Positions 1,016 through 21,625 of a DNA stretch of 22,900 nucleotides are shown here, piece by piece (the first letter of the stretch is position 1; each line of letters begins with the position of its first letter). The DNA comes from Mesotaenium endlicherianum (Eukaryota): contig WELA01002297.1 in NCBI GenBank assembly GCA_009602735.1, positions 124,001 through 146,900 of the forward strand. The letters are read 5' to 3'. The notes below the pieces were generated by a model. That model saw only the letters and a list, made by a program, of their open reading frames with translations, was not told the origin of the DNA and did not search any database. Position numbers and translations under genes: made by a program.

Positions 1016-1724
1016 TGAAATGAATCGACTTACCAATAGGCGATTAAGAATTAATTAAGATATTTTAATCAGCAAGTAATCTTTATGGTATTTTCTGTTA
1101 ACTCAAATAACGGCAAAAGACATTACAACTAGCAATGAGCGACATTCAAATGCAAGTAACGAGCATCAATCATGGAATCAGTAAACTAATACATAAGCAA
1201 GGTTAGTAAGCAGTTCTTGTAACGGCTTGTTGCCTTGGATTCAGATGTTTCTTTCAGTAAGCTGTACAAAGAGTTGGCCTCGTTTCCGACTGCCGAACTC
1301 GGTAACGTTCCTAGCATATGTACATGGAATAAGTTTACTGTTCAACGGCCAGTGCGATGGCACCACCTACCCGGGAGTTAACCACGTTGGTAGGACCTCG
1401 GGTAACCAAATCCACAGCCATCTCCCATCATCCCGAATCGCCATCCACCTAAGGTGTCATCTGGCCATTCATCTACAACACCACACTTAGATGCATATCT
1501 AGGCAATTCACCGATACCGCTTAAGGCGGTCAGCTGGTTGTCAAAGAATGTGTCAGCAAGCTGACGTAAAAGGACTTCAGCCTGCTGCTATCGGCTAAGT
1601 CGTTATACTGAATATAACTAAAAGTCCAGAGGACTCAATGTTAACTAAAGTTCAACATACTGAACTTCATTTAAGAATTATATTTAAATGACTATTATAT
1701 CTATCAATATACTGATTTATTACA
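1016..1724 (-). repeat. 3' LTR of outer element (709 bp)
   Basis: Aligns end to end with 15653-16359 (about 43 substitutions and 2 small indels by hand, ~94%); TG...CA termini; adjacent to PPT. Confidence 0.97.
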
Positions 1725-1725
1725 A

Positions 1726-1737
1726 TCCCTCCAACTT
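1726..1737 (-). other. Polypurine tract of outer element (AAGTTGGAGGGA)
   Basis: Purine-rich run on the minus strand 1 nt before the TG of the 3' LTR. Confidence 0.8.
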
Positions 1738-1958
1738 AACTTGTTGTCGCCTCGACAACATTAAATTGAGTATATAGAACATAAGAAAATTGACAGTACT
1801 AATCTCCCACCGCCTGCCTCTTGTTTCAACACTGTTGCCTAACTGTAGGAATCATATGTAACAGCAATTGTTACCTCCACCCTCAGCCCACTACCTTTGT
1901 GAAATGCAAACAGAGAGACCCCCAGCAAGGTTGACTGAAGGATGGTTTTGAATTTGTT

Positions 1959-3207
1959 TCAGGGAGATGTTCCTGGGGCTGCAGGATCAGGGGACCTAAA
2001 CCTGGACCTAGAACCAGACAGTGCTCTAGTCCTGTCAGCAGGTACTCTAAAGAGGCCTTCCTGCTGCAAAGTGGGGCCTCGAGGAGATCGGAGAATTGCA
2101 GCCTGCTCCTCCACCACCTGGTGGCTGATCTCCACAATGACAGGCACGCCAGTAGGATGTTGAAATACATTGGCAACAGGTACATGTCCCTGGCTGGAGG
2201 GAGGGGCCAGCATACCTCTGGCTGTACCTCGAGTTCCCCTTCTGGGCCCTCTGTCTTCTGAGGATTTTTGCCTGTCCCTGCTACCAAGTACAGTCAACTC
2301 TGCCTCCTCCTCTGCTTGGGGAGGGAAATGGGGAAGCATGAGAGAGTGGGGCCTAGCACCTGTAGCTTCCACAGTAGGATAAACTGTCCAAGAGGTAGTT
2401 CCCTGTGCCTTTGGGGCCTGTGTTCCTGTAGCCTGCTGCACCTCACCAGTACCAGAAGTAGATGCTTCTCCCTTTCCCTGTTCCTGGTCCTCCTCCTCCT
2501 CATCATCCTCTTCCTCTGAGAGGGCTGGAGTTTGATCTCCAAGCTCATCTTGCTCCCTAGTAGACATGGAGAAGTCTACTGAATTGCCTTTCTTAGGTCG
2601 GGGCGGGGGCTGCTTGGCTTTCAGCTTGCTAAGGTCTATCCTCCCTGCCCTTTTTGCCTATTTGACAAAGGCATGCTTTCCCTTTGAGAAGTAGTCCTGA
2701 CCTCTTCTCCTGTGCTCCTTGGTTTCCGAGTTCATGTTACTCAGGCAGCTGTTCAGCCTGGCATCCCATGGGGCAATGTGAGGTGGTAGGATGAGACAGC
2801 CATCCAGCCCATAATGAAAATCGTCGGGGTGGGCCCGGTCACACTCCCGCTTCCTGTTAGTGACTGTCATCCATCTCCAGTCTGTTGGGTGCTGATATAA
2901 TTGGTGCCCATCCACCGCCTTCCTCAGCTTACAAGGGAACCAGTGGGGAGCGAAAATCTGCTGCCCTGTCTCCTTGGCCAAGTAGTCCCAACTTCTCTTC
3001 TCAACTTCATTATAGGTGCAAAGCAGCGCTTGCCAAAAGTTGACATCCTTGAAGCTGTTCGGTTGCAGGCTCACCATCCGGATGAGTCTTTGATGTCCTA
3101 CTAGGCTTGGTAACGGTATTGGCTGGCCTTCTGAGTCGTCTGCAAAGACCAGAGCCTGGTCCGACTCATACCCGACCATCTTGGCATAATCTTCGTAGAG
3201 GACAACG
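1959..3207 (-). pseudogene. Extra ORF (ORF3) of outer element, 3' part; protein of unknown function
   Basis: ORFs 2658-3179 and 1959-2567 are in one frame, separated only by TAG at 2660-2658 and 30 open codons (AKRAGRIDLSKLKAKQPPPRPKKGNSVDFS); frame continues across the nested insertion site. Confidence 0.8.
3203..3207. repeat. Target site duplication of nested element (left copy, CAACG)
   Basis: CAACG precedes TGTAAC; same 5-mer at 9579-9583. Confidence 0.95.
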
Positions 3208-3634
3208 TGTAACGATTTGAGCTTTTTAGGCGTATTTGGGACGTTTTCTCAATTACCTAAAATACATTATACTATTCATCATAAGTTATTTGATAAATGA
3301 TTGCATCACATTGAATTATTTGCCACACACGTGTGCCGATTGATTCCCGGTTGATTGGCGAAACGATCGAGATACTATTGCAAAACGCGTCGTAACGTAA
3401 TACGACTACTTCGCAAAAGTACGACATAATTATTCATAAAGCTACTGTGAATAATTATGAGATGATAATTTAATTATTCATTGTTTGATTAAATTATTTT
3501 GATTGTCATTATTACGAATGATGGACAATCACAGATTTCGGATTACGACTAGTCGTAATACGAAGAAACTGTCGTATCATTAATACGAACAAACAGTCGT
3601 AAAGTCAAACGAAACGAAATATGCGAAGTCGCTT

Positions 3635-3705
3635 TGCATCCGAGCGGATTCGAACCCGCGACTTTCGTTTGAAACGTTCACACCTATTCGATTGGCCAAA
3701 GTAAC
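3635..3705 (-). promoter_or_regulatory. tRNA-like Pol III type-2 promoter module (A box + B box) in 5' LTR
   Basis: Minus strand TGGCCAATCGAATAGG...GTCGCGGGTTCGAATCCGCTCGGATGCA; perfect B box GGTTCGAATCC at 3656-3646; cloverleaf not intact. Confidence 0.5.
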
Positions 3706-3954
3706 TTTTTTAACTACCGGTTGATGACGAAAGCATCTGTATGCGACTCCGCGATCAATTGCGACTTTTTCGGAAAGTCGCGAGAACGCGAAAACGCCCG
3801 TTTGGCGCAAAACGGTTTTTCGGAAACCGTCGAAAAGTCTCCAAACGACCAACTGCGCGTTTCGAGCATTCGGCCGAATGGGACACGTCCCTTCGACCGT
3901 TTTTGTTGCCCTAGGTGAAGACTCGAAGCACTCCAGTGCCTCATGTTGTGCAGG

Positions 3955-3962
3955 TATAAATA
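3955..3962 (+). promoter_or_regulatory. TATA box of nested element LTR (TATAAATA)
   Basis: Canonical TATAAATA followed ~30 nt later by a pyrimidine/CA-rich tract; same site at 9397-9404. Confidence 0.7.
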
Positions 3963-4136
3963 CCTGTAGAGTCATTGTGAGTGCAACTCTCACAAGCACA
4001 CATTCTACGTTAGTTTTCACTTTCGCTCTTTCGAGTATTCGTCAATTTCCACAAGTATACAGATTTTCCTCCCACTTGAATTAAATATTCCTTGAATACT
4101 AAGGAAAGATCCTCTCGATAAGCAGAAACGTCACAT

Positions 4137-4149
4137 TGGTATCGGAGCC
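4137..4149 (+). other. Primer binding site, tRNA-iMet type (TGGTATCGGAGCC)
   Basis: 1 nt after the LTR CA; one mismatch to the plant iMet PBS TGGTATCAGAGCC. Confidence 0.9.
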
Positions 4150-4287
4150 GATCTCGGTTTCTTCAAGGAATTATTTTATTTTTTTTTGGTCAGAAAGTCT
4201 GTCGCATTTTCTGCCGGATTCTGTCGTCGAATCTAACCGATTTCTTGATTCTGTATAGATTCGCCCCCGATTCGTTTCCAGTTCGCC

Positions 4288-4449
4288 ATGGCTCGCGGTC
4301 GCCGGATCAAAATCATCTACATCGACGACGACTCACCCCGCCGGCCTCGGGTCTCGCCACGTGTTGCCTCGGAGCCAACTCGGCCGTCGCCTACTTATTC
4401 GCCTATGGCTCCGCCCGGCTCGCAGCGCTCGTCACCCGTCGATCTTTGA
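4288..4449 (+). pseudogene. Short 53-aa ORF, possible truncated gag N-terminus ([20 protein letters not shown]...)
   Basis: First ATG after the PBS, in GCCATGG context; Pro/Ser/Arg-rich; no capsid or zinc knuckle follows. Confidence 0.4.
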
Positions 4450-7400
4450 TCGAAATTCTAGGAGTTTGCGCGCTAGCCCCAAGAATCCTTGTTCACTCAG
4501 GCATACCCGATATAAATATACTTCGAAACGAATATATTTGTATGCCAGTGTTGAGCTTTGCTGAGTTCTTGGAACTCGAGTGCATCCATGATACCATGTT
4601 CTTGCACTTTCAGCCGCATGATCCTAACCTTGCCAAGTGTTACGAACACTTATCTCGCTTACAAAAAATGCACAAGTGTCTTGCACCAATATATATTGCT
4701 GCATTCACATATATTCGCGCGTACTTTGACCCGATTACTCGATTTCGCGCAAGGACAGCAATGCAAAATGAGATTTTGGTAAAGGACCTCCATATTTCCC
4801 ACATTCCTCTCAAGGCGAGGACGTTGCTGCTGATGCATAATGCTTCTTTGGGATTAAGTATGACATTTGAAACGAAAGTTTCAGGAAAATCATGCTTTAC
4901 AGTCATTGATTCAGGCGCGTCAGTAAGCTTCATTAGTGCACGTTTTGCACCAGGGATGAAGTTGTTTCCAATACTCAAGGACGAGACTCTTCACCTTGGC
5001 GATGGCTCGTTAGCTTGCATTACTGGAATGCTTAAATTACCGCTCAGCGTGCAGTCCTTCCATGGGCATGTACAATTCTACGTAACTGAATTGCCGCATG
5101 GAATCGACGCAGTTTTGGGTAATGATTGGCTTACGCAAACAAGTGCATTGCTTGACTTCAGTCAAAAGACATGCATTGTACGCAAGGGGACTAGGAAGAT
5201 TTCTCTTCAGTCCCTTAAGCCCGATATGGCCTTGGAAAGTCCTTCGAAGACTCTACTATTGTCCATAAAGCAAGCGCGACGTTTGGCAAAGCACGGTCAA
5301 AATGTTCTCTTTGGATTACTGAGACCCGATTCCCCAGCAACTTCAACTACGCTCTTTACGCAAGAACCGATGTTGGACATTACTGGTCATGAAGAAACAC
5401 TCACAGCCGACCTTTTTGCTCTTTTGCAAAAGTATAAGTCAGTGTTTCCAACTGAAATACCAGCCGGGCTTCCGCCTGATAGGGGTATTGGACATACCAA
5501 CCCTCTTGTTCCGGATTCTCAACCGACTTGGCGACCGATTTATCGCCTAAGCCCGTTGGAAATGACCGAGATGAGAGATCAAATTAGCGACTTGCTGGAG
5601 AAAGGCTGGATTGAGCCGAGCTCTTCTCCATTCGGGGCCCCCATCCTCTTTGTCCAGAAGAAAGATGGGACGCTTAGAATGTGCATTGATTATCGTGCGC
5701 TGAACAACATAACGGTCAAGAACCGCTATTCGTTGCCTCGCATTGATGATTTGTTTGATTCGCTGCAGGGGGCATGCGTGTTCTCCTTGCTTGATTTAGC
5801 CCAAGGCTATCATCAGATTCGAATCACACCAGAGGATGTCCCCAAAACAGCGTTTCGAACGCCTATTGGGCATTTTCAATACAAAGTCCTAAATTTTGGA
5901 CTTACCAATGCACCAGCGACATTCCAAAGTACCATGAACGATTTGTTTAGACCTTACTTGGGGAAATTTGTCCAGGTTTACCTCGACGATATTCTTGTCT
6001 ACTCAAAGAACAGGGACGAGCATTACAAGCACCTCGAGTTGGTGTTGCAAATCCTTCGTGAGCAGCAGCTGTACGCTAAGCTCAAGAAATGTTCCTTTCT
6101 AAAGGATGAACTGTTGTACCTGAGACATATAGTGGGTTTGAAAGGGGTGCGCCCTGACCCAGCCAAGATAGCGTGTGTCGCTGACTGGCCTGTCCCAACC
6201 GATATACATACTGTACGTTCATTCCTCGGATTTGCTAACTACTTTCGTAAGTTTATGCAAGGTTATTCAGTGATGGCCGCGCCACTCACTGCTCTGACAA
6301 GGAAAGATAAGACGTTCATTTGGGATGAGAATACGCAACATGCGTTTGAGCGCATTAAGTATGCACTCACGAATGCGCCACTTCTTTCATTAGCCGATCC
6401 CGACTTGCCTTACGAGGTCGTCGCCGATGCGTCTGGTGTTGGAATAGGGGCTGTACTGCTGCAGGCAGGCCAGCCTATTGAGTCGAAAGCTGACACCTGC
6501 CGAATAAAATTACTCAACGACAGAGCAGGAGCTTTGGGCAGTCATATACGCTTTGAAAACTTGGCGATGTTATTTGGAAGGCTGCAAAGGTTTGACAGTG
6601 GTTACGGACCACTGCCCAAATACTTTCTTTCAAATTCAGCCAACGCTATCGAGGAGACAGACGAGATGGTCCGAGTTCTTGCAACGATTCCACTTTGAGT
6701 GGGCGTATTGCCCAGGCCGCAACAATGTTGCTGATCCTCTAAGTCAAATTCCTCACCACCACTTTATGTTGGGGACTGTTGCGAGCTTGCGAGAACGAAA
6801 TGGTCAGGTTTCGAGGGCGGCCACCCTTGATTCTGCTGTACTCCCCCAGACGTCTGACCGCAACCAACCTGGTGACGCGGGCACACCCGATTTGGATAGC
6901 ATGCATAACTCGGAAATACTTGACCTGCATCAATTATTTCACGAGGGCCATCTCAAAGATCCGATTTTCCTAGATCCAGGGTACTGGCTTGAACGGTGTA
7001 GCCGTAACGATGGACAGTATGGATAAAAGGAAAGAACACTCAAACTATTCGTTTGAGGACGGTTTTTGGTGGCACAATGGGCGCATTGTTGTCCCAGAAG
7101 GCCGAGTAAGACATGTGCTACTACAAGAAGCGCATGACTCTCCTTACTCAGGTCATGATGGAATTACCAAAACCACACACTCTTTGCGCCGAGGGTACAT
7201 TTGGCCGTCCCTTAAGGTTGATGTTGCCGAGTACATCATCCACTGCGCAACATGTCAGAGGCATAAGCCGAGCAATACGTTGCCCGCTGGGAAGTTGCAA
7301 CCATTGGAACTTGCATGTGCTCCTTGGGAAAGCATAAGCCTCGACTTTGTCGTTGAATTGCCTACCACCGATCGAGGACACAATGGGGTGCTAACGATCG

Positions 7401-8233
7401 TGGATCGTTTCACTAAGATGGTACACTTTGTGGCCACTACCCCAGCACTTGATGCCGTCGAGACCGCACGTCTCTTCGTAGATCACGTGTTCAAGTTGCA
7501 TGGCATGCCAAAGGAAATCATAAGTGATCGTGACAGTAGATTTACGAGCCACTTCTGGCAAGAAGTTTGTTCGCATTTCGGCACGAAACTTAAGATGTCA
7601 ACTAGCTTCCATCCTCAGATCGATGGTCAGACAGAACGAATGAACCGCGTTCTGCAACAGTTCCTTACGCATTATGTGAATCCTTGCCAAGACGACTGGG
7701 ATACCCTCCTTTCAGTCGCAGAGTTCGCAGTTAATAATGCTTATTAGAAAAGTGTTAAGAAAACTCCATTTTTCCTTAACTATGGGCGACATCCGCACAC
7801 TCCTCTCACGCGGGTCGTTTACGTTGAGGCGGGGCTGTCAACTATGAGAGTACCAAGTGCACGCCTATTTGTCCATTCTCTTCAAGAGGTGCACAAAAAC
7901 GCGAAGCTAGCTTTAGCCGATGCTCGAGATCGGCAGAAAAAGTTTGCTGACACGCACAAGACTGAGTTAAGTTTTCAAGTTGGCAATAAAGTATTTTTGC
8001 AAACTAAAAACCTCCAACTCAAGCATCCAGGAAAGCGCTAGCTTCTGCCTCGCTGGGTAGGCCCTTTTATCGTTATCGCAAAGGTTGGACCTGTTGCATA
8101 CCGACTGGATTTGCCTACATCCATGGGGCGAACGCATCTTGTGTTCCATGTCAGTTTACTGAAGTTGTTTAGGTCCGATGGCCGCTATCAGCCACAAGCA
8201 CCGAAATTGGAACTCGCCGATGATGATAAGGCC

Positions 8234-8392
8234 TGGGATGTAGAGGAGGTCTTAGGACACCGCTACACTCGTCATAAACCTCCACGCGTGGAGCTTTTGA
8301 TAAAGTGGCTAGATTACGATTCCAGTTGGAACTCGTACGAACCTCATGACGAAATCCTACTTGATTGTAAGGACCTGGTCCAACAATATTGG
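8234..8392 (+). other. Chromodomain at integrase C-terminus (nested element)
   Basis: WDVEEVLGHR...LLIKWLDYDSSWNSYEP matches the chromodomain pattern; followed by basic tail RKPWNKRKR. Confidence 0.88.
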
Positions 8393-8622
8393 TTACGATG
8401 GGCTGATGCTCAAAAGCTCTGCACCGAGGCAAGTGTGCTACCAAGCGCTCTTCGTAAGCCATGGAACAAACGCAAAAGAGACGCAGCCAAGTAATCGCTC
8501 TTCTCCGTCACTATGATGATGCATAGTCCAATCGCTCACCAGTGTTTTCCGCTAGCCAAGGCTTGTATCGACACATCTACGACTTAAAAGACGTACGCTT
8601 AACGAGGACGTTAAGTTCTTGT

Positions 8623-8635
8623 AAGGGGGGAGGAG
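8623..8635 (+). other. Polypurine tract of nested element (AAGGGGGGAGGAG)
   Basis: 13 purines directly before TGTAAC of the 3' LTR. Confidence 0.95.
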
Positions 8636-9578
8636 TGTAACAATTTGAGCTTTTTAGGCGTATTTGGGACGTTTTCCCAATTACCTAAAATACGTTATAC
8701 TATTTATCATAAGTTATTTGATAAATGATTGCATCACATTGAATTATTTGCCACACACGTGTGCCGATTGATTCCCGGTCGATTGGCGAAACGACCGAGA
8801 TACTATTGCAAAAAGCGTCGTAACGTAATTCGACTACTTCGCAAAAGTACGACATAATTATTTATAAAGCTACTGTGAATAATTATGAGATGATAATTTA
8901 ATTATTCATTGTTTGATTAAATTATTTTGATTGTCATTATTACGAATGATGGACAATCACAGATTTCGGATTACGACTAGTTGTAATACGAAGAAACTGT
9001 CGTATCATTAATACGAACAAACAGTCGTAAAGTTAAACGATACGAAATATGCGAAGTCGCTTTGCATCCGAGCGGATTCGAACCCGCGACTTTTGTTTGA
9101 AACGTTCACACTTAACCGATTGGCCAAAGTAACTTTTTAAAGTATCGGTTGATGACGAAAGCATGTGTACGCGACTCCGCGATCAATCGCGACTTTTTCG
9201 GAAAGTCGCGAGAACGCGAAAACGCCCGTTTGGCGCAAAACGGTTTTTCGGAAACCGTCGAAAAGTCTCCAAACGCCCAACTGCGCGTTTCGAGCATTCG
9301 GCCGAATGGGACACGTCCCTTCGACCGTTTTTGTTGAACATGAACCAGTGCCCTAGGTGGTGACTCGAAGCACTCCAGTGCCTCATGTTGTGCAGGTATA
9401 AATACCTGTAGAGTCATTGTGAGTGCAACTCTCACAAGCACACATTCTACGTTAGTTTTCACTTTTGCTCTTTCGAGTATTCGTCAATTTCCACAAGTAT
9501 ACAGATTTTCCTCCCACTTGAATTAAAATATTCCTTGAATACCGAGGAAAGATCCTCTCGAAAAGCAGAAACGTCACA
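8636..9578 (+). repeat. 3' LTR of nested element (943 bp)
   Basis: Direct repeat of 3208-4135. Confidence 0.97.
9063..9133 (-). promoter_or_regulatory. tRNA-like Pol III type-2 promoter module (A box + B box) in 3' LTR
   Basis: Minus strand TGGCCAATCGGTTAAG (A box/D-loop-like, starting 9126) and GGTTCGAATCC (9084-9074) at tRNA-like spacing, ending CGGATGCA. Confidence 0.55.
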
Positions 9579-9583
9579 CAACG
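9579..9583. repeat. Target site duplication of nested element (right copy, CAACG)
   Basis: Follows ...CGTCACA; matches 3203-3207. Confidence 0.95.
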
Positions 9584-10018
9584 CCTGTGCTAGTCTCAAT
9601 ATATTTGTCAACGTCCCCATCTCTCTGCAGCACTGCCTGCTGAGCTTTCATATTAATGTCCTCGGCCACCAGCAGCGCTTCCTTCAGGTTGTCAAAGGTT
9701 GACCGCCCACTACCGTATACCTGTAAGTGGCTGTGTGGACCTGCCTGTCCTCCTCCTCCTTCTTCCGCCTGGCTTGCTCAGCAACAGCAGCCTGTTCTTG
9801 TTGTATTCTTTGTTTCTCCCACTCAGCTTTTCTGAGGTTTTCAGCATCCTGCTCTTTCTTCCTCTGTGCCTCCTCCGCTTGCTCCTGCTGCTTGGCTACC
9901 TGTCCCGTTGTCTCTTAGTGAGGGACGTTGACGCCAGTTCCTGCTGGTAGCGCTCCACGGTCTTTCTGGCTTCCTCAGCCTTGCGTATCCTGTCTCCATT
10001 TTGCGTGGTGGGAGCCAT
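9579..10018 (-). pseudogene. Extra ORF (ORF3) of outer element, 5' part; charged coiled-coil-like N-terminus
   Basis: ATG 10018: MAPTTQNGDRIRKAEEARKTVERYQQEL..., frameshift ~9900, VAKQQEQAEEAQRKKEQDAENLRKAEWEKQRIQQEQ..., frameshift ~9700-9775, TFDNLKEALLVAEDINMKAQQAVLQRDGDVDKYIETSTGV joining VLYEDYAKMVGYESD once the nested element is removed. Confidence 0.72.
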
Positions 10019-10019
10019 C

Positions 10020-10123
10020 CTGCACAGACAATCACCACGGTAGTTAGTAGAGCACAATAGGTTGTTACTGTGATCCTTGAGCGAGACAGAGGTTTATTAA
10101 TGCAGCGATTTTCCACCCCTTAC
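10020..10123 (-). other. Candidate 104-nt spliceosomal intron in 5' UTR of ORF3
   Basis: AAG/GTAAGG donor, TACTAAC branch point at 10049-10043, TTGTCTGTGCAG/G acceptor 1 nt before the ATG. Confidence 0.65.
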
Positions 10124-10208
10124 CTTAACAAGGTTTGTGTTAGGAGTCAATAATCCATAATGCTGAAAGTGAATGTGAGTGTGATTGTGTACTGTGAAGA
10201 GGTAAGTG

Positions 10209-10218
10209 TTTTTATGTA
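10209..10218 (-). promoter_or_regulatory. TATA-like box (TACATAAAAA) of a putative internal ORF3 promoter
   Basis: Followed ~20-45 nt downstream by CA/pyrimidine-rich ACACAATCACACTCACATTCAC, then the splice donor. Confidence 0.4.
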
Positions 10219-10246
10219 GGGCCTCTTTTGTGCCGAGCAGTGAACA

Positions 10247-10360
10247 CCCTCCAACTTAAATGAAAGTGGGTCCCATCAGTCACTACCGTCACCTTCCCAT
10301 CAATTAACTGTCACTTTCCTCCAACTTAAATGAAAACAGGACCTTCTGTCACCTTCCCAT
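10247..10360 (-). repeat. Imperfect tandem duplication containing two PPT-like copies
   Basis: CCTCCAACTTAAATGAAA at 10248-10265 and 10318-10335; GTCACCTTCCCAT at 10288-10300 and 10348-10360; 10247-10259 is identical to 1727-1739. Confidence 0.85.
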
Positions 10361-10407
10361 GTCAACTGAAATGACAGTTAGGGTGATTTACCAGCTTCCC
10401 GAAGGTG

Positions 10408-10563
10408 AAAGCGTTTGAGAGCGCCTTTTGCGTTGACCAAGTGATCTTTGAATTCCCATGTGTCCCCAGATGCATCATACCCTTTCCACCGGACCAAGTA
10501 TTTCATGACATATTTAGAAGATCGACGGACAGATCGAGCTTCCAAAATTTCAATCACCTCATA
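10408..10563 (-). other. Chromodomain at integrase C-terminus (outer element)
   Basis: YEVIEIL...YLVRWKGYDASGDTWE with the three aromatic-cage positions (Y, W, Y) of group I chromodomains. Confidence 0.92.
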
Positions 10564-13500
10564 TTCATCAGGGTCACCATTGCGGACAGGAGGGACCGGT
10601 CCCGGTTGGACAGGTAACCGACCTGTGAACAGTTTGTCAACCTTGATGTATGGTTCTAGGAAGGAGACATTAAAGACAGGGTGACCCTTGTAGTCAGCTG
10701 ACATGTTCAGTTTATATGCATTCTGACCGACTCGGCGGACCACCGTATATGGACCGACCCAGACAGGTCTAAGCTTTTTCTTAACCACTCCAGGTAGGTA
10801 CAGGTGTTGAGCATGCAGTTTGACTAGATTCCCTTTGGAAAATGTCAGATCCCGACGGTGTTGATTGGCATATTTTTGTTGGTTTTCTTGAGCTGTAATT
10901 AGATTCTGTTGGACCTCTGACAGAGTGTCAGCAAACTCTTGAGTCAGCTCAAGGAATGCCGGATTGTCAATCCCCTTTGGATTGGTCAATGACTTCCCTA
11001 GGACATCCAAAGGTGACTTAGGGACCCTGCCCAGACTGAGTTCAAACGGAGACTTCCCCGTTGACACATGGACCGCACTATTGACAACAAACTGAATCTG
11101 TGGCAATAGGTCATCCCAATTGTTTTGTTTTTGATTAATATAAGTTCTCAGCACCTCCTGAAATTCTCTCAGTCTGCCCATCAGTCTGAGGGTGGTTTGC
11201 TGTGCTGAGAAGCTGTTTGACTCCCATCAACCCCATTAGAGGTCTCCAAAACTTAGAGGTGAATTTTGAGTCTCTATCTGATATGATGTTAGAGGGTAGC
11301 CCATGTTGGCATACCACATGATTATAAAATTGTCTCGCAGTTTTGAGAGCAGTTACCTTCCCAGTGATGAGTATAAAAATGACCACTTTTGTCAGTTTAT
11401 CCACTACTACCAGAATAGAATTATGTCCATTCTCAGTTCTCGGTAGTATCACTATCCAGTCCATGGAAATGGTTTCCCATCTTCCTGCTGGTATAGGGAG
11501 TGGTTGCAATAGCCCTCCAGGGAGAGTGTGTCGAGATTTATTTCTCTGGCACTGATAATATGACTTAACATATTTTAAGACCTCCCTGGTCAAACCTATC
11601 CAATGGTAGTGTTTTGCCAGTTTGCCAACAGTTTTGGCCTGCCCCAAATGTACACCCAGGAAGGTGTCATGTGCCTGACTCAGTAGGAGCGACCTTATTT
11701 CCAGGTTATTAGGAATGACCAACTTCAGCCTGCCTGAAGTGGTTTAGTTACCCAGATCCCCCCTTTGAGCTTATACCCAAGTGCAGTAGCAGGACACACA
11801 CCATCCGTGGGGCTTGGCTCAAATGTTGGGTCAGAAAGGTTGGCTTTCCTAAGTTGTTCAAGGAAGGATTTTTTCGCCTTAAGTGAAGTGAGTGCACAAA
11901 GGACTTTGTCTACAGCATGCTGATCAAAGTTCCTTTCTTGCAAGTCAGGTCTTCTAGAGAGTGCATCAGCAGGACTCAACTTCCCTGGTTTGTAGTCAAT
12001 CTGGACTTGGAACTGCTCCAGCATCTGGCTCCAGCGGTTCTCCTTCCTCGACAGCTTGGACTTCTTCTGAAAGTGAGTCAGAGCTAGATGATCTGTAATC
12101 ACCTTAAAGGCCTTACCATGTAAGTATGCTCTCCACTGTTTGAGCACATGAATGATAGCTAGCAACTCTTCATCATGCACTGAGTAATTAATCTCCGCTG
12201 GATTAAATTTCATAGATTCGTACAACACAGGGCGCCACTCCTGCCGTACCTTACCATCCTTTGTGGTTTTGTCAGCAGGCTGCAACAAAATAGCACCCAT
12301 GGCAAAGTCAGAAGCGTCAGTAACCACTTGCACAGGTTTGCTGGGGTTATATACAGCGAGAACAGGGGCAGAACATAGGGCATCTTTAAGGGTCTGGAAG
12401 GCAGCTTGCTGCTCTTCCCCACACACATAGCCTATGTCCTTTTTAGTAAGGTCAGTCAGTTTACTGGCCTTGGTGGAGTAATTTTCAATAAATCTTCTAT
12501 AATTGTTAGCCAACCCAAGGAAGGACCTAACTCCTGAGACAGATTGAGGTACTGACCAGTCCCTTATGGTCTGGACCTTCTTAGGATCAACACTGATGCC
12601 TTCCTTACTGATAACATGACCCAAGAATTCTATACTCTCTTTAAAGAAATCACATTTGCTCATTTTAACATACAATTGATTCTTTCTGAGAGTATCCATT
12701 ACTATTTTCAAGTGTTCAGCATGCTCAGCTTCATTCTTAGAAAAGATCAAAATATCATCCAAAAAGACTTGCACAAACTTATCCAAATAATGTCTGAAAA
12801 TGTTATCATAGTACCCATGAAGGTAGCAGGAGCATTGGGCAGACCAAAAGGCATCACATTGAACTCATAATGTCCATAGCGTGTGCGGAAGGCCGTCTTG
12901 TGTTCATCCCCTCAGCAATTCTGATTTGATGATACCCACTCTTCAGATCAATTTTATTGAACACTTTAGCACCAGACAGTGTATCAAGCAGATCCTCGAT
13001 CTGGGTAAAGCATACTTGTTCTTTACAGTAATTTGGTTCAGAGCTCTGTAATCAACACACATCCGCATACTGCCATCCTTCTTTTTAACAAATGAAATGA
13101 GTGCGCCATAAGGTAATTTACTAGGAGAATTATAACCATTCTCCTCCAGCTCTGCAATTTGTGTTTTTAACTCTTCACTCTCCACATAAGACAAGCCATA
13201 AGTGCGTTGCCAAGGAGGCTGACTCCCAGGTATAAGATCAATCTTATGAACTACCTCCCTCTTAAGAGGTAATCCTAGAGGCATGTTAAAAACGTCATCA
13301 TAATGAGCAACAATTTTTACAGCAGTAGGGTGCTCCGGAGGGCTTACCTTTTTCTCAACCACTTCTTCAGGTTGAGGAGGTACCTCTAGCAGTAGACAAA
13401 ACATTCTGTCCTCCTTCTGGTTCCAGCTCTGCATGAACTCCATTGCATTCAGCAACTTGCATCCTCTTGGAAGCCTTTCTCTTTCCTTCATTTGCCATGC

Positions 13501-14144
13501 ATACAGGACAAGAGGAAGAGCACTGGTGGGTGCCAAGTTAGTCTGCCCATCACTGGCTCCTCTCACTTTAACTGTACCTCTGCTCCAACACACTTCGGCT
13601 TGATGTCTATTCAATCAGGACCTCCCTAGCACGAGATCATAAAAGCCAGTGTTGAGTACCTCAAATGCAAGCGTTTCAGTTAGAACTGCAATGCCAGAAC
13701 CTAACTGGACCTCAATAGGCTTGGTTATAATTCCTCTCGAGATACTTGAGGCATCTCCAAGAAATATCTTTCTATTCCCTTGGGTGACAGTAGGCAACCT
13801 TAGTTGCTTAACTAAGTCCTTATGGATAAAAGTATGTGACGCCCCTCCGTCAACAAATGCTCTCACCTTCCTACCTGCGATCATGCAATGCAGTAGGATA
13901 GTGGGCACTGATTTTTCCTGACTTTCGCATTGTTCTCCTGACTTTGCAAAGAAATGTTGGACATCAGGTGGAACAAGACCATCCAGAGTGTGCACTCTCT
14001 GGAGATCTATATTGCTGATGGTCTCCTTTATCTAGTTGTCAGGCATGCATAGTGAATTCAGTTCAGCAGGACCCATAATACCTGCTACGAGGGTAGCTAG
14101 CGACGACTCACTACCTCTAGCATCCTCATAGTTAGTAGATTAGA

Positions 14145-15617
14145 TTACTGACTGTTGCTGTCTTTTAAAGGCTGATCCTTTCTCTCGACCCTCGGAAGGT
14201 TCTTACCAGGACATTGTTCTCTGTAGTGACCCAACTTCTGGCAATGGTAGCAAGTGGATTTTGCTGAGGCTGGTCTCGGCTTAGTCCTTCCACCACCTCT
14301 TCCATAGCCACCACGAGAGTAGCCACCCTGACCTCTGGACTGCATAGCATTGTACTCATACTCATGCTCCTCATACTGGTCATCCTGAGCCTGGTCTCCT
14401 TCAATAGCATTGTAGGAACCATGGGGCTTTTTGACCACCTTAGACACCAAAGCACTACTCTGGCGTTTGTGATTGAACTGTTGTTGATCCCAAGCATCAG
14501 TATCTTGGATCAAGTCAGCCAATGCCTTATACTTCTTCTCAGCAAAGTGGCCTGAGACCTCAGTTTTCAAGCCAAACCTGAAGTATGCTATCCTGTACTG
14601 TTCCGTCAATTCCGATTGTTTCATCATGTTCTCCTAGAACCTCTGAGCATACTCAGCAACTGAAGTAGTCTGCTTCAGTGTCAAGGAGATCATCGCATAG
14701 ATAGCTTTCTCTTGCTGATTGATGACATCAAACTTCTCATGCAAGAACCCAACAAACTCTACCCATGTTGGGTCACGGAGTTCTTTCTCTTACCTATCTT
14801 TCTTCCAGTAAAGCCACCATTCTACTGCACTGCCTTTTAGTAGAGCACCGATATGCCTTATTTTCTCATGATCTTCCAGTTCTGGATAGTTTTCCAGCCA
14901 CTGATCTACATCAGCGAGGAACTTGATCAGATAGTACTTTTTGTTTCTCTCAGGATCAATCTCCTGAGGAGGTTTTGGCTTGGGCCTAATAGGTCCCCTG
15001 CCTCCACCAGTAGCCTGTGAACCCAGTTGGTCTCTACTACGCATCATATCACGCAGGGCTCTTCTATCCTCCTGTTGAGCTTCATACATCATCGCCAATT
15101 GCGATTGCATTTGCACAACCAGGGCACCCACGTCCACAGCCCGAGGTGGCAAGCCAGCAAACGCAACAGCAGTAGCATTAACTTGAGCAGCAGCCGCTTC
15201 GGCATTCCCTCTTGTTGCTGCTTCAGCTATTCCTGTTGCACTCAACTGCCTTTGAATGCGAGCAAGAGGGACAACTGTAGGTACAGTAGGAGGTTGGTTT
15301 TGGAGAGCAGCCATTTCTGCCATTTGCTCCTCTACCGTCCTTTCCTGCGTAACTCTTCGGTTGACTCCTTCTATGTCTGCTACCTCTTTAGCAAGACGCT
15401 CGGCTTCTACTCTGAGTCTTTCGTCTTCAGCCTGCTGGGCTGCTACTAAGGCTATGGCTTCAGCTTCCTCTTCAGTCTCTCTAGCCTTTTTAGCTGCCAC
15501 TACCTCCGCATAAGTCTGGGATTGAGCATCTTCCTCAGCTCCTGGAGCTGCGGCGTTCTCGTCATGCTCACCCTCCATATTACCGGAGTTGCTAGTTTGA
15601 GACCGGGTCGATACCAT
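14145..15617 (-). pseudogene. gag: gag of outer element (490 codons, two in-frame stops)
   Basis: MVSTRS start close behind the PBS; LKGSAVEWW, TWVEF, LKQTTSVAEY motifs; CYHCQKLGHYREQC knuckle at 14252-14211; TAA 14792 and TAG 14636 interrupt one frame. Confidence 0.93.
14163..14169 (-). other. Candidate -1 ribosomal frameshift heptamer T TTA AAA at gag-pol junction
   Basis: X XXY YYZ pattern in the gag frame 5 codons before the gag stop; the -1 frame is the protease frame. Confidence 0.65.
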
Positions 15618-15633
15618 ACAAGAGAACTGTAAT

Positions 15634-15651
15634 AACCTCGCTCCGATACCA
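15634..15651 (-). other. Primer binding site, tRNA-iMet type (TGGTATCGGAGCGAGGTT)
   Basis: 1 nt after the 5' LTR; 16/18 match to land-plant iMet PBS TGGTATCAGAGCCAGGTT. Confidence 0.92.
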
Positions 15652-15652
15652 C

Positions 15653-16359
15653 TGAAATGAATCGACTTACCAATAGGCGATTACTAATTAATAAAGATCT
15701 TTTAATCAGCAAATAATCTTTATGGTATTTCTGTTAACTCAAATAACAGCAAAAGACATTACAACTAGCAATGAGCGACATTCAAATGCAAGTAACGAGC
15801 ATCAATCATGCAATCAGTAAACTCATACATAAGCAAGGTTAATAAGCAATTCTTGTAACGGCTCGTCGCCTTGGATTCACATGTTTCTCTCAGTAAGCTG
15901 TACAGAGAGTTGGCGTTGTTTGCGAATGCCGAACTCGGTAACGTTCCTAGCATATGTACATGGAATGAGTTTACTGTTCAACGGCCAGTGCGATGGCACC
16001 ACCTACCCGGGAGTTAACCATGTTAGTAGGACCTCGGTTAACCAAATCCACAGCCATCTCCCATCATCCCGAATCGCCATCCACCTAAGGTGTCATCTGG
16101 CCATTCATCTAGCACACCAAACTTAGATGCATATCTAGGCAGTTCACTGATACCGCTTAAGGCGGTCAGCTGGTTGTCAAAGAATGTCTCAGCAAGCTGA
16201 CTTAAAAGGACTTCAGCCTGCTGCTATCGGCTGAGTCATTATTTGAATATAACTAAAAGTCCAACAGACTCAATATTAACTAAAATTCAGCATACTGAAC
16301 TTTATTTAAGGATTATATTTAAATGAATATTATATCTATCAATATACTGATTCATTACA
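15653..16359 (-). repeat. 5' LTR of outer element (707 bp)
   Basis: Direct repeat of 1016-1724, adjacent to the PBS. Confidence 0.97.
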
Positions 16360-16364
16360 CAATA
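16360..16364. repeat. Target site duplication of outer element (right copy, CAATA)
   Basis: Follows ...CATTACA; matches 1011-1015. Confidence 0.93.
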
Positions 16365-16399: not shown

Positions 16400-17700
16400 C
16401 AAAATTTCCATTGACGTTCTTGCGAAGTATATTATACGTTGTACTTGGCCATTGGTGATGGGAATGTATCACCAGGTACAGAATACGGACGAAGCCTTAA
16501 ACTACTTCCAAGGCGCGCTACGTGTCATTCAAGTTCACAGTGATAGGTAAGGCACCTACTAAATTCACGGAACTCATAAAAATTATCTTCAAATTTTATA
16601 TGATCCAATTTGTTGGAGTATGTTTACACGATATACCAAAGTTATTCAAAGACTCTTGTAAAACATGTGGAATATTTGAGAAATATGTTCAAGGTCTTAA
16701 GTGGTAAGAAGTTATATGGGAAGATGAACAAGTGCAACTTCCGCCTCAAGAAATTTGAGTTTCTTGGGCACATAGTGGCAGGTGAAGAAGTCAAGGTGGA
16801 GCAAAAGAAGGTCTGAGCAAACAGGTGCTTGGTAAAATACGTCAACTCAGGGTTTTCCTCGGCATGATAAGTTATTATTAGGGCTTCATTAAAAAGTTTG
16901 TCTTGGTTTGTGGACCAGTCAGAGACCTGTTAAAGAGGGAAGAGAAATGGCTATGGGTGACAAGGAGCAGCAAGCCTTTGAGTAGGCTAAGGTGTTATTG
17001 ACACAAGCATCTGTGTCGGCAATTGCCAATCCAAAATTTCCTCTCACCATCATCACAGATGCATAAGACTTTGCTGTCGGAGCCATTCATCTCCAGCACC
17101 AAGAGAAGGAACGAGCATAAGTATGCCTCACACGAGCGAGAGAAATTCACTATTATTCAGGATATAAGGATCTTGGCAATGTTATGTGGACGGTCAGAAG
17201 GTGCTGATTAAGACCGGCTACAAAAGCTTGGAGACATTCATGACGCAACAGACGTTGACACCAGACACGCAAGGTGGATGAAATTTGTGCAACATACCAC
17301 AAGATTGGATCAAACCTGCAAACGCTTGTCCAGGAGATATGACCTTGCACCTGTCTCAGTGACCAAAGAGACTTTGGACTTCAAGAAGAAGCTTAAGGAA
17401 GCTTACGAGGAGGACCCAAAGTTTGTTGACGGTGGAGTTGTTGAGTCCAACTCAAGTATGCAGGAGAAGGACGCCATATGGTATTATGCTGATTCCAAGA
17501 GAGTGGTGGAACCTGTTCTCAAGGAGCTATTAGACTTACTACTTGCGCAACATCATAATTGCTTATATGCTGGACACTTGAGCAACGAGAAGACGGCAAG
17601 CTTGTTGGAGCAGGAAATTATTGGAATAATATGGCCGGACAAGTTCATTGAAGAGTCAATCAAGAAATGGGATGCATGCCAAAAAACAAGACACGAAATC
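16400..17700 (+). pseudogene. pol: Ancient, highly degenerate Gypsy pol relic (RT, RNase H, integrase zinc finger)
   Basis: Across frames: GMYHQV, SYSKTLVKHVEYLR, KLYGKMNKCNF, EFLGHIV, FLGMISYY, EQQAFE, ITDA*DFAVGAI, HHNCLYAGHL...WDACQK. Boundaries approximate. Confidence 0.85.
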
Positions 17701-18445
17701 GAAAGAAGGGGGTACCTTGCAATTTCTGTTGAATTATACTTAAGTCATGTCGAGAAGTTCCCAAGCCCTCACCCTTTACACATGTGGTTAACCATCAGAT
17801 TTTGACGTTCTCAACTAAATATTTTTGCCACAAGAAATTTGTATGTACAGCTGAAAAAATATTCCTCTTTCATTTGGAGCTCAATGTCATGGAGCTTGTC
17901 AATGACTATTATCTATTGTTCATATTCTCATTCGGTACTAATTCCTAGTAGGGACTTGACCTTCTAGGTGCAAGAGCAAGTTTTCTCCCTCTCGTATCTT
18001 CTTGCGACCATAAGTCGCAACATCTTCATCATCAAACTGAGCTAGGTCACAAATTCCAAGCTTGAGGGGGGGTGAACCATACGCCTGTTTCTGTCGGTCA
18101 GCGTATCCAAGAGGTTGACTTGCACACTCTTGGCGCTCGCCACACCTGAGCTGGTCGATTTTCCTACGGACGAGTACCTGTTTTTGTAACAAGCGCTCGC
18201 AGGGAAGAGCCAGAATCGCGCCACAAAGTCAGACCCCATTTCTGCTGTCATTCGAACGGTCAAGGAATTTGAAATGAAACTGTATGTGATACGCGAGCTT
18301 CATGTTGTCGAACTCAGTGCTCACTACTTATACTAGGTGGAACACTAGAATTATCAGTCGTTTTTTGTATCGGGCATAACGGACTGGGGGTGGGGTCTTG
18401 CATATCGTTCTTCACTTATACCTCTCACGGATGACTAAGTGAGGG

Positions 18446-18575: not shown

Positions 18576-18687
18576 GTATGTATGAGAGGTAGAATTACTA
18601 GGTAATATAATGGCTGACAATTTTATAATGTTTCTTTTTTGAGGCTGCGTGACAGACAATCTGAATGGTGCTTGTTTCCTTTTACAG

Positions 18688-18769
18688 AGCTGACCTTTGA
18701 GCTTTCGAACAAGGAGGTACTCTGCGTGGAGGAACAGGACGTCTTTGACAAATTGCACTCCGTTGTCAG
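18688..18769 (+). CDS. CAP-D2: CAP-D2 coding exon 2
   Basis: TTTACAG acceptor; ELTFELSNKEVLCVEEQDVFDKLHSVVR resembles plant FDLSDRELFCVEDQDVFD motif; donor AG/GCAAGT. Confidence 0.87.
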
Positions 18770-19174
18770 GCAAGTTTTCAGACCTTATTTCGTAGGATAC
18801 AAGGAAGTGGAGCTTGGCATTCCATACGTTCAGATACTAGCATGTCTCTCAAACATGAAACATATACTATGACACATTCTAAAATAGTTTGGATACAATG
18901 GCAGAGAATTACCGTCCTCGTACACCTGCTGATACCCCAAAATGACAGATCAGACGTTCCCATCCGCCTCCTCAGTCATGGTCAACTTAGGTTTTCAACA
19001 AGATGATTGTTGAGAGCTAAGGGGCTTTTCAGTGTAAGTACGTTTTTCCAGTAAGAAGATAATCTTAGTCTGCGGGACAATGTGTGACGCAACATCGGCA
19101 AAACATGTCATACAGCTGACCTGATAGTGCTCCATCAGTCAGCTGACCTGCCCCCCCCCCCGGTGTCCTTGCAG

Positions 19175-19439
19175 GGACTTTGAGCTGCTTGAGCCGAGCA
19201 ACAAGAGCCATATACTTGATGGCCTCTGTTCAAATCTCACCTGCCTCATACCTTCCATCTCGTCCCTCTGCTCCACGCCCTCAGAGACGTCAGAGGACGC
19301 AGCAGCTCTGAGCGATGCCATACAGTCCCACAGAAATGCCCTCAAGATATACACCTACTTCCTGCACTGCATATACCTGACGGGGGAGAAGGGAGCAGCC
19401 TCTGCTGCAGCGGAGGCAGTGCCAGTCAAGCCCGGCAAG
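19175..19439 (+). CDS. CAP-D2: CAP-D2 coding exon 3
   Basis: CCTTGCAG acceptor; LCSNLTCLIP and SHRNALKIYTYFL motifs; donor AAG/GTGTGG. Confidence 0.9.
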
Positions 19440-20001
19440 GTGTGGCCTCCGCTTCCCCGCTCCAGCACCCGAGCACAAAATTCTTCTGAAGTTTGTGCCA
19501 AGGAGTGTGCGAGGGAGTCAGCTCTGACATCTGAAGGAGAGGAGAGGCTGCTGAAGGGAGACTTAGCAGGGGCCAGTACTAGCGTGGCTGCAGTGGCAGT
19601 GCTCTCCGTCTGTGCCAAGGGGCTGGCCCTGGAGAAAGCTCCCAGGCTCCTGCGGCCCTAAGCCCCGCTGCAAGAGAGGGCCATGTGGTGATGGCTGTGC
19701 TGCTAGCATACACTTTCAGGGTGCCCTGCGCAATTCTGTCTGTGACGAGCGTGTGGGTCATCGACGTTGGGAGCTTGCCATGAGTGGTGTTGGCAAATTT
19801 TGTCTTTTTGTTTGATGTTTTGATGGTTGAAAGGAGAGGGTAATGTTGGCAGCAGGGATGAATGGCATCACTGCATCGTCTCGGCTGCCGTTTCGAGATG
19901 CAACTACGTAGACAGCAAGCAGGCGTTTGCGCCACTCGCTGCTGAATTGACCCGACTTGACCTGCGGTGGACCGCTCCTCCGGCCTTGCCTGAATCCGCA
20001 G

Positions 20002-20165
20002 GGGCGGCAAACGAAGAAGAGGCATGTGGCAGCCGGGTGGGACTGGGAGATACAGCGGACGGCAGTGATGCGCCCCCTGGCCCTGGCGGCCGCCCTGGAC
20101 AACGACCTGCTGCAGCTCTTCCGCGGCGCCAAGCCCGACGAGGCCCTCGTCATGCTCTTCCAAAT
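20002..20165 (+). CDS. CAP-D2: CAP-D2 coding exon 4
   Basis: CCGCAG acceptor; WDWEIQR...DLLQLF...PDE; donor AT/GTACGC; phase fits exon 5. Confidence 0.87.
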
Positions 20166-20172
20166 GTACGCC

Positions 20173-20226
20173 GCCTGCCTGCCTGCCCGTCTGCCTGCCT
20201 GCCTGCCTGCCTGCTGCTGCTGCTGC
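20173..20226. repeat. Intronic microsatellite (GCCT)n then (CTG)n
   Basis: Directly visible. Confidence 0.85.
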
Positions 20227-20937
20227 TTGTGCGAGGGGCACACGCCGCTGCTTCAGCCCTAAGTTACGGAACTCGCCAAGCGCGTGGCACTACGAGCAGC
20301 CCACGCTGGCGCGCACTCCCTTCCAGATGTCATTGCGAAACAGGCAGGCGGAGCGGTGTGCGAGGGGGAAGACTTCATCCACGCCTCCGGCTCTGGGGCC
20401 TCAGTGGCAAGGGAGTACGCGCAGCTCTATGCAATGGATGCTGAGACTGCTCAGCAATTTTCAGCGAGGCCCAGTCTGCGTAGGTCCTTGGCTGAGTTGG
20501 GCCGACCCAAGTTACTGTCCCAACCCTGGCACTTGCAGGGCCAGCAGACTGCTCTAGTGAGGAGGGGGGGGAGGAGGGGAGGGAGGGCTTGCGTGGGCTG
20601 CCCTAGGCGCGGAGTGGCATGCTGCGGGGACGTAAGTGCCCGCAGTGGCGAACCAAGCGTGCTGCGTGCGTGGCGTTCACTATACCGTGTTAGGACACGG
20701 AAAGGGCGAGAGTCATATGCAGCGCTTTTGACGTGTTGGCGCCTCCTCTGCACGCCCGTCGGGGACAGGGCCTCCTTAACGTGCTCGGGCCAGGGCTGTC
20801 TCGCCCCATCTTGGCTGCCCGCCATGCGCGTAGTCCCCCCTCCGCTCACCTTCCACGCCGCCCTCTCACAACAGCCAGCCTGTCGACTCTCGTCCCGTGC
20901 TGCCACGTGGCGCGATGGGGGGCGGGCGGGCGAGCAG

Positions 20938-21625
20938 GACGGCCATGGCGCTCCTGGAGAGCCCCGTGGCGGTGCGCGACAAGGAGGCCAAGGAGTACTC
21001 GGGCATCATGCTGGCGCACTGCGCGCTGCGCTATGGGCAGCTCCCGCACACGGTGTCGGCGCTCATGCACGCGCTGCACAAGCACGAGCACCTGCCGGGC
21101 CACCTGGCGGACGTGGTGGCGCTCTCAGAGCTCAAGCTGCGCGACGGCCGGCTGGCGTCCGCCGCCCTCCAGGAGGCCGGCCGCGGCGATCCGCGGCAGT
21201 ATGCGCGCGACGCGGGCGGCGCCAAGAACGTGGCGGAGTTCCTCGTGGCCCTCGCCGACCGCCTGCCACGCCTGGTGGCCAAGAACCTCAGCCTGGTCAT
21301 GCCGCACCTCCACGGCGAGGCGTACCCGCTGCGCAACGCCGTGGTGGCCGTGTGCGGCAAGATGGTGGCCAAGGTGTTCCGCGACCCCGTGGCGGAGAAC
21401 GCGGGCGGCGAGGCCAGCCGGCTGCGCTCCAAGCAGGGCCTGCTGGAGGTGCTGCTGGAGCGCGCGCGCGACGTGTCGGCGTACGTGCGCAGCCGCGTGC
21501 TGCAGACGTGGGGGTACCTGTGCGAGGAGGAGGCGGTGCCGCTGGGTCACTGGAACGCCGTGGCCGCGCTCGCCATCGGCCGCCTTGAGGACAAGTCCTC
21601 CATCGTGCGCAAGAACGCCCTCGAG
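20938..21625 (+). CDS. CAP-D2: CAP-D2 coding exon 5 (HEAT repeats)
   Basis: EAYPLRNAVV, LLERARDVSAYVRSRVLQTW, GRLEDKSSIVRKNAL motifs; GCAG acceptor, GAG/GTGAGC donor. Confidence 0.93.

Follow-up and report, generated by a model that had tools for sequence, protein, structure and literature searches.

A codon-constrained extra gene behind pol in a decayed chromovirus of Mesotaenium endlicherianum, split by a younger insertion

Analysis of a 22,900-nucleotide stretch of Mesotaenium endlicherianum DNA (the window) indicated that an old, dead gypsy-type element carries, between pol and its 3′ LTR and in sense orientation, an additional reading frame of about 560 codons, which can with high confidence be regarded as a protein-coding gene of the element's family: it is present in sister copies, its codons are constrained, and its product has no membrane segment. 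The relevant components of this outer element, and of the younger element nested within it, are as follows.

1016–16359, minus strand: outer chromovirus, an older, dead gypsy-type element, host to the extra gene
15653–16359, minus strand: outer 5′ LTR, with target duplication CAATA at 16360–16364
15640–15651, minus strand: primer binding site TGGTATCGGAGC, of the same letters as the site of the nested element
10378–15617, minus strand: gag-pol of the outer element, interrupted by 4–5 stops and shifted in frame 5 times; the chromodomain lies at 10405–10563
1725–1760, minus strand: terminal hairpin and polypurine tract (PPT), with its 12-mer at 1728–1739
1016–1724, minus strand: outer 3′ LTR, with target duplication CAATA at 1011–1015
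3208–9578, plus strand: nested younger chromovirus of 6.4 kb, with LTRs at 3208–4135 and 8636–9578

The outer element is a chromovirus, its domains following the gypsy order of PR, RT, RNase H, integrase and C-terminal chromodomain (Pfam; Chromo E = 2e-8), and its LTRs, bounded by TG...CA ends and the target duplication, have diverged by 6.1%. Its primer binding site is presumably of the tRNA-Met type. The corresponding divergence for the nested element, which begins with TG at 3208, ends with CA at 9578, is flanked by a 5-bp duplication (CAACG at 3203–3207 and 9579–9583) and has no counterpart of the extra gene, is 3.1%. Best hits were 44–52% identical, and a quick tree of 122 rows placed the outer RT, with weak support, beside unnamed sequences and separate from the 13 named seed-plant rows. 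A metagenome search with the integrase returned one 1.1-kb contig devoid of context. Inspection by eye recorded the aromatic cage residues of the chromodomain. The N-terminus of the outer Gag is a long, charged helical stretch.

Removal of positions 3208–9583 brought the frame ending ...DKYIETSTGV into register with that beginning V-VLYEDYAK, in agreement with the original prediction that the nested element had split a single gene. Also as predicted, this gene runs from an ATG at 10018 to a stop at 1959 (1684 nt without the insertion), interrupted by a single TAG at 2660–2658 and, in its 5′ piece, by two frame changes, at about 9900 and 9740; read across these breaks, its roughly 560 codons exceed the 250 taken as the minimum for a sense ORF between pol and the 3′ LTR, an interval in which the element holds about 2.1 kb of extra sequence. 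The frame from 3206 to 1962 contained one stop in 415 codons compared with 9–25 in the remaining five frames, and in 5000 base shuffles of the region the best frame always had at least three. The successive parts of the gene are listed below.

9584–10018, minus strand: 5′ piece, comprising the ATG, a coiled-coil-like charged segment in which the frame changes twice, and the start of the core
2532–3207, minus strand: conserved core and basic stretch, containing the TAG; summed contig depth is high here, and codon changes are biased to synonymous
2324–2531, minus strand: acidic variable linker, at single-copy depth (59.6–65) in run X2
1959–2323, minus strand: C-terminal part, with an RG-rich motif, a sister-shared block (2068–2223), a short RS run and the stop (1961–1959)

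The charged N-terminus (50–72% E, K, R, Q and D in the pieces of 10018–9741) and the core of 182 residues, with six W, five C and nine H, correspond to the layout first proposed; the 'RS-rich end' of that layout, by way of correction, amounts to a run of about 10 residues, and the RG stretch is similarly short.

Evidence from sister copies was drawn from contigs of public runs of the same species, X2 and X8 among them. Diverged copies without the nested insertion read through the junction with the frame unchanged. In X2, 826 contigs aligned to 1700–3235, most of them less than 95% alike, and summed contig depth, which is not a copy number, reached 18,000–129,000 in most bins of 2532–3207 as against 59.6 in the linker, for which no sister aligned at 80% identity. 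One X8 contig of 1806 nt was colinear through the LTR edge, the C-terminal block and the core. It is thus in many copies of the family, as the X2 contigs and colinear X8 contigs indicate, and not in a single copy, that the extra gene is found. The loose ends of nine X2 contigs and one X8 contig extending past 3207 resembled the window from 9584 onward, and over the nine codons beyond the junction the synonymous, replaced and identical codons, counted by eye, numbered 3/3/3 in X2 and 5/3/1 in X8. Of the 12 changed codons in the core, eight were synonymous (0.24 expected as a fraction, P = 0.002; 0–3 in other frames), as were all three sister differences in the coiled coil (two contigs); the codon counts derive from the 25 in-gene differences among the matches listed, out of more than 250 rows. 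Sister copies lacking the region or decaying neutrally, a match to a known env, and a host gene captured in this copy alone were each sought and none was found; the original view of a genuine accessory gene is upheld by the in-frame junction, the sister copies and the synonymous bias of the core.

Searches for relatives of the protein were uniformly negative, as was the recognition of any family at the outset. A full HMMER search of 1.84 billion proteins yielded no homologue; word-index searches with the core (228–727 aa and 100–319 aa) returned nothing; and the core matched nothing in Pfam, PHROGs (best E = 0.036), NCBIfam or PDB sequences, nor in viral, metagenome or prokaryote contigs. Five HMMER matches to WD40-repeat proteins were rejected because their scores sum over the repeats of the target: the best single domain gave 6.4–8.8 bits, with no Pfam WD40. 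Likenesses to GT-A glycosyltransferase-like folds (Atlas at most 0.90, with 99–130 shared features compared with 2226 for recognition) fell below the Atlas's own bar, had no Pfam match and were likewise set aside. The single-sequence fold of the core (pLDDT 33.5; no PDB match at E ≤ 0.001) was uninformative. Rfam gave no match, and RNA structure in four stretches was unremarkable (z from 0.14 to −1.52).

Several signals absent from the original prediction were located.

15665–15671, minus strand: candidate donor G/GTAAGT, 18 nt before the LTR end and upstream of the primer site
10248–10329, minus strand: two internal 12-nt polypurine-tract copies (10248–10259 and 10318–10329) in a 70-nt duplication directly behind pol
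10118–10218, minus strand: local alternatives, namely a TATA-like TACATAAAA (10218) and a G/GTAAGG donor (10124), at single-copy depth only
10020–10049, minus strand: putative splice signals, with a TACTAAC branch point at 10049 and, one base ahead of the ATG, a TGCAG acceptor that ends at 10020

Taken together, the branch point, acceptor, LTR donor and internal PPT copies suggest splicing in the manner of env, and the acceptor ahead of the ATG is probably joined to either the LTR-end donor or the local one. The LTR donor recurs in the 3′ LTR at 1034, and such a donor fell within the last 60 nt in 61 of 4000 LTR shuffles; the branch point and acceptor arrangement arose in 4 of 4000, and the PPT 12-mer in 1 of 4000 spacer shuffles. 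The splice patterns were chosen after inspection. The local donor by itself is frequent by chance (612 of 4000). The bin holding the acceptor and ATG had a summed depth of 1850 compared with 55.8 in the adjoining bin, and the coding strand of the nested element, a single case, contained neither TACTAAC nor GGTAAG[TG]. Since the LTR end carries several ATGs upstream of the donor, the LTR model requires a late start site. No spliced junction read or RNA start was seen over 9602–10308 (zero reads in runs X10 and X13, about one in X16) in the 6–24% of each run that was read, at a likeness threshold of 85%, too strict for diverged sisters. Across the 3′ half RNA was sparse, consisting of 41 X13 reads in both mate directions with none in the 99+ band, for which DNA carry-over or host read-through is a possible source. 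An RNA loose end at 10318, considered as a sister family without the gene in which the PPT leads straight to the LTR, was dropped: it resembles the next bases of the window itself.

The favoured, though tentative, proposal is that the extra gene is read from such a spliced message and specifies a soluble nuclear RNA-binding regulator akin to retroviral Rev and to CERV of the nematode element Cer1. The coiled coil would promote self-assembly, the folded core together with the basic and RG/RS stretches would serve nuclear entry and RNA contact, and the protein would thereby assist the survival and nuclear exit of the element's unspliced genomic RNA. Such a role is proposed because strong splice sites around gag-pol would oblige the element to protect its full-length RNA; searches for an RNA-binding domain, or for a fold or sequence link to CERV or Rev, found none. 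The broader scenario, in which a chromovirus of a non-seed-plant, alga-like host became a complex retroelement, splicing from LTR to acceptor as for env, exporting its unspliced genome by means of a new nuclear protein family that would amount to Rev invented independently outside animals, and using internal PPT copies to assist the copying of a longer genome, is distinctly doubtful.

Of the alternatives, that of an anti-silencing factor (a VANC-like DNA binder or a suppressor of RNA silencing) keeping the family active is rather unlikely, although transposon accessory proteins that counter silencing are described in PMC13547354 and PMC11728184, the family is abundant, and the product combines a basic stretch with an orphan globular core. 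Pfam gave no match to a VANC-type protein or to any other domain, and the outer element contained no target motifs in tandem array. CpG depletion is strong in the carrier, extra gene included (ratio 0.24–0.46), but absent from the nested element, which has no such gene (0.92), a comparison between elements of different ages. A chromatin or particle partner, its coiled coil co-assembling with Gag or the integration complex to steer nuclear entry or target choice, would account for the charged N-terminus, which the outer Gag shares in kind, and for the basic stretch. The two coiled coils are, however, dissimilar (E = 1.9), the integrase already possesses a chromodomain, and the nested element inserts with no such gene, which makes this partnership unlikely.

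It is also quite improbable that the TAG at 2660–2658 is a natural stop, dividing two genes or a read-through gene with a lightly constrained C-terminal tail. The C-terminal block, with three synonymous and seven replaced codons, does match expectation in the absence of selection, the sister codon at 2658–2660 is not among the matches listed (212 further rows), and nothing but the logic of the frame and short loose ends ties the ATG to the core. On the other hand, the sister codons directly after the TAG were mostly synonymous (four, with one replaced and one identical; two contigs, by eye), the basic, acidic and RG motifs beyond it are retained (by eye), and one stop plus two frame changes is what the gag-pol rate of decay predicts.

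That rate, judged by eye as 9–10 breaks in 5.2 kb of gag-pol and matched by three in the 1.68 kb of the extra gene, together with the common CpG depletion, identifies an old family gene as opposed to a fresh host capture. Capture of a host gene, or a useless passenger, could be argued from a GC content of 0.54 compared with 0.44 in pol, and from the PPT copy directly behind pol as a possible mark of foreign entry; it is nevertheless very improbable, and already largely refuted, given that sisters about 18% diverged retain the gene with synonymous bias, that its CpG ratio resembles gag-pol and not the host exon (1.05; GC 0.73), and that no cellular homologue exists among the proteins searched. 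An envelope or small fusogen for cell-to-cell spread, despite the env position, sense orientation and env-style acceptor before the ATG, is scarcely credible: a hydropathy scan, in keeping with the initial judgement that this was no obvious env, gave a maximum of 1.01 over 19 residues in any piece, hence no transmembrane helix, and a charged N-terminus with no signal-like stretch, and the protein is therefore not an env.

With respect to known systems, the original remark that extra ORFs after pol are less typical of chromoviruses overstated their rarity: sense examples are given for 18% of Tekay chromoviruses in the supplement to PMC6317226, and others are drawn behind pol of fungal gypsy elements in PMC2864245. 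In PMC6317226, none is listed for Chlamyvir (algal, 44 elements), Tcn1, Reina, CRM or Galadriel. The present gene resembles eORF-3′F / aORF-3S, as characterised in PMC6317226 and PMC7264820, in place, orientation, length above 250 codons, occurrence in many copies and the lack of any domain in common with other such ORFs; it differs from the env-like members in having no transmembrane segment, and, as far as tested, its host and the outer RT fall outside the Tekay set of seed plants. With non-seed-plant chromoviruses the outer element shares the PR-RT-RH-INT-chromodomain order, the 5-bp target duplication and the tRNA-type primer site, and departs from them in the 2.1 kb between pol and the 3′ LTR and the two internal PPT copies. 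The function of extra ORFs in plant-type retrotransposons is an open question (PMC7264820). What is added here is an orphan protein family with a conserved core, variable linker and candidate splice signals in an abundant family, for which expression route and role are now testable. Were a role in RNA export or in countering silencing to be established, the case would be among the few in which such an ORF has an assigned function, and a chromovirus group with no entry in the main survey would join those known to carry such genes; failing that, it would be one more unnamed extra ORF.

Grande gene23 (antisense, with its own promoter) and the sunflower Tekay 5′ aORF, according to PMC7264820 and PMC11728184, are likewise orphan, helical plus disordered, with a basic localisation-like stretch, but lie antisense or ahead of gag, whereas the present gene is sense and behind pol. 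As described in PMC10309623, CERV of C. elegans Cer1 is a nuclear protein of 517 aa without homologues, made from a spliced mRNA and required for export of genomic RNA. Both it and the present product are orphans of similar size from gypsy-type elements, with a helical or zipper N-terminus, a globular part and a basic stretch, and the candidate splice signals here likewise suggest a spliced mRNA. CERV has exons in common with gag, whereas the gene described here has a separate ATG downstream of pol, and the searches made found no link in sequence or fold between the two.

Two chromoviruses, one nested in the other, adjoin a host condensin gene in the window:

16359 to 1016, minus strand: outer element, LTRs of ~707 nt (6.1% diverged), target duplication CAATA
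Minus strand: outer-element primer site, TGGTATCGGAGC
3208-9578, plus strand: inner element, LTRs 3.1% diverged, target duplication CAACG

The primer site, common to both elements, is followed in the outer one by gag, protease, RT, RNase H, integrase and chromodomain, a series that ends at 10378; with the inner element subtracted, the outer pol and the terminal polypurine tract lie about 2.1 kb apart. When the joined frame was built by subtracting the inner element plus one copy of its target duplication, the upstream and downstream frames lay in register, thereby bearing out the original prediction of one split gene, which runs from an ATG at 10018 to a stop at 1959, spans 1684 nt (roughly 560 codons) and is broken by one TAG and two frame changes. 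The downstream frame contained a single stop in 415 codons, the remaining five frames having 9 to 25, and none of 5000 shuffles gave one or fewer stops in any frame. That this extra gene is a real hidden gene is well supported.

Sister evidence was drawn from public runs under the same species label. On 1700-3235, 826 contigs from a DNA run (X2) aligned, of which 560 had a likeness below 95%. Summed contig depth, which by the tool's own warning is no copy number, reached 18,000-129,000 in 11 of 13 bins spanning 2532-3207, and 33,000-46,000 at 2116-2219. In the acidic linker it stood at 59.6, equal to that of the window copy's own contig; the profile tracks the layout of the protein. A single 1806-nt contig from a second run (X8) carried the LTR edge, C-terminal block and core colinearly. 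At 3207, the insertion start, contigs from X2 (nine) and X8 (one) departed from the window and continued in a manner resembling 9584 onward (20 of 29 bases identical by eye in X2), which indicates sisters free of the insertion with the joined frame kept; the possibility that sister copies would lack the region was thus checked and set aside. Over the nine codons past 3207, synonymous and replaced codons numbered 3 and 3 in X2, and 5 and 3 in X8. Support for the 5' side is thinner, since at 85% likeness most bins there sit at single-copy depth, only 9804-10106 being higher.

The codon test covered 25 in-gene differences among the 40 listed, of more than 250 in all. Among the 13 listed for the core, 8 changed codons were synonymous and 4 replaced, where a synonymous fraction of 0.24 was expected (P=0.002), the same differences yielding 0-3 synonymous in the other five frames; the predicted codon constraint was accordingly upheld in the core, and failed in the C-terminal block, where 12 listed differences gave 3 synonymous and 7 replaced codons, at chance level. 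Short loose ends contributed 4 synonymous, 1 replaced and 1 identical codon behind the TAG, and 3 of 3 differences synonymous in the coiled coil. The block 2068-2223 appears constrained, being common to sisters at the DNA level, yet its listed differences lack codon bias and no unusual RNA folding was found there.

Breaks in the window copy, counted by eye, amounted to 3 per 1.68 kb in the extra gene and 9-10 per 5.2 kb in gag-pol, equal rates being as expected if all genes were intact when this copy inserted. CpG ratios of the extra gene (0.24, 0.46) match those of gag-pol (0.30, 0.38), unlike that of a host exon (1.05), which argues against recent capture; with the gene shared by sisters, a host gene captured in this copy alone is not what was found. 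The CpG gap between the outer element (observed/expected 0.24-0.46) and inner pol (0.92) seems larger than their age difference (6.1% versus 3.1% LTR divergence) would give.

Several further features were recorded. The inner element has only about 750 nt from primer site to protease (4148-4900), and Pfam yielded neither a Gag nor a zinc-knuckle match; its gag may be very short or unusual, another family's capsid possibly being required. In the inner LTR (3537-3608, 8965-9036), a 25-nt tandem pair comes after a 28-nt palindrome. The outer gag and protease frames overlap (14125-14170, minus strand) at TTTAAAA, which resembles a -1 slippery site; just downstream, a second TACTAAC at 14137 with AGs behind it could be a coding coincidence or a pol acceptor. 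Decay is far more advanced in a third pol fragment (16600-18080, plus strand; integrase zinc-finger match, E=0.004), which terminates near 18065 in a G-rich run resembling a PPT. The host gene (18680-22900) has GC-rich exons, matches condensin subunit 1 (Ycs4/CAP-D2; E=7e-17), and shows by eye CTRAY-type branch motifs in its introns.

Between pol and the ATG, a 359-nt spacer carries the 12-nt motif of the polypurine tract twice. It also holds a TATA-like stretch, a sequence resembling a splice donor (GGTAAG, 10124) and a candidate branch point (TACTAAC, 10049), after which a candidate acceptor stops one base short of the ATG; GGTAAGT also lies in both LTRs, 18 nt before the LTR end and upstream of the primer site. 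For these patterns, picked post hoc after inspection of the sequence, shuffles reproduced the branch point plus acceptor in 4 of 4000 cases, the LTR donor in 61 and the local donor in 612. Sisters share the acceptor/ATG bin (summed depth 1850), whereas the bins holding the TATA-like stretch and the local donor's upstream flank are unshared (55.8-60.9), which would slightly favour env-like splicing from the LTR over an internal promoter. No splice-junction reads were detected in three RNA runs (6-24% of each read), and almost no reads of any kind fell on the 5' piece. One of these runs (X13) gave 41 reads on 1700-3235 in both mate directions, none in the 99+ band; some of them match diverged sisters, over the core and the basic stretch.

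As at the first reading, no family was recognised: sequence and domain searches returned no relatives, and alignment-free fold prediction gave a pLDDT of 33.5, too low to be informative. Two candidates were rejected, namely WD40 proteins (five HMMER matches among 1.84 billion representatives, scored from many weak repeats; best single match 6.4-8.8 bits) and glycosyltransferase-like Atlas clusters (score 0.90 or less, few shared features). The reading favoured, tentatively, is that the product may bind RNA in the nucleus and regulate the transcripts of its own element. With strong candidate splice sites flanking gag-pol, the genomic RNA would be an intron-containing one; the coiled coil, folded-looking core, basic stretch, short RG and RS runs and lack of a membrane anchor would suit such a role, and the inner element, a single case, lacks both the extra gene and these splice motifs. 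An anti-silencing role is less likely, and a particle or chromatin role slightly less likely again. The envelope reading is largely excluded, every piece being devoid of a hydrophobic segment (hydropathy maximum 1.01), as anticipated, and so is the passenger reading.

For a nuclear RNA regulator, CERV of Cer1 (PMC10309623) offers, as there described, a tested precedent in a gypsy-type element, likened by job and element type, with no homology shown. Neumann et al. 2019 (PMC6317226) give sense 3' extra ORFs for 18% of the 782 Tekay elements surveyed; among 44 Chlamyvir elements, and for the remaining chromovirus clades, they list none, though their per-element data could hold exceptions. In a quick RT tree the outer element stood apart from the named seed-plant sequences, grouping at weak support with unlabelled ones. 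A search of largely open-access literature found no report of a gene of this kind in a chromovirus from algae. Among related accounts, Vicient and Casacuberta 2020 (PMC7264820) review extra ORFs of this sort and give their role as unknown; others describe Tekay 5' ORFs predicted to be nuclear (PMC11728184), fungal gypsy elements with an added ORF (PMC2864245) and accessory proteins in general (PMC13547354). The present gene, with a testable expression route and a putative function, is an orphan addition to the known class of extra ORFs behind pol.
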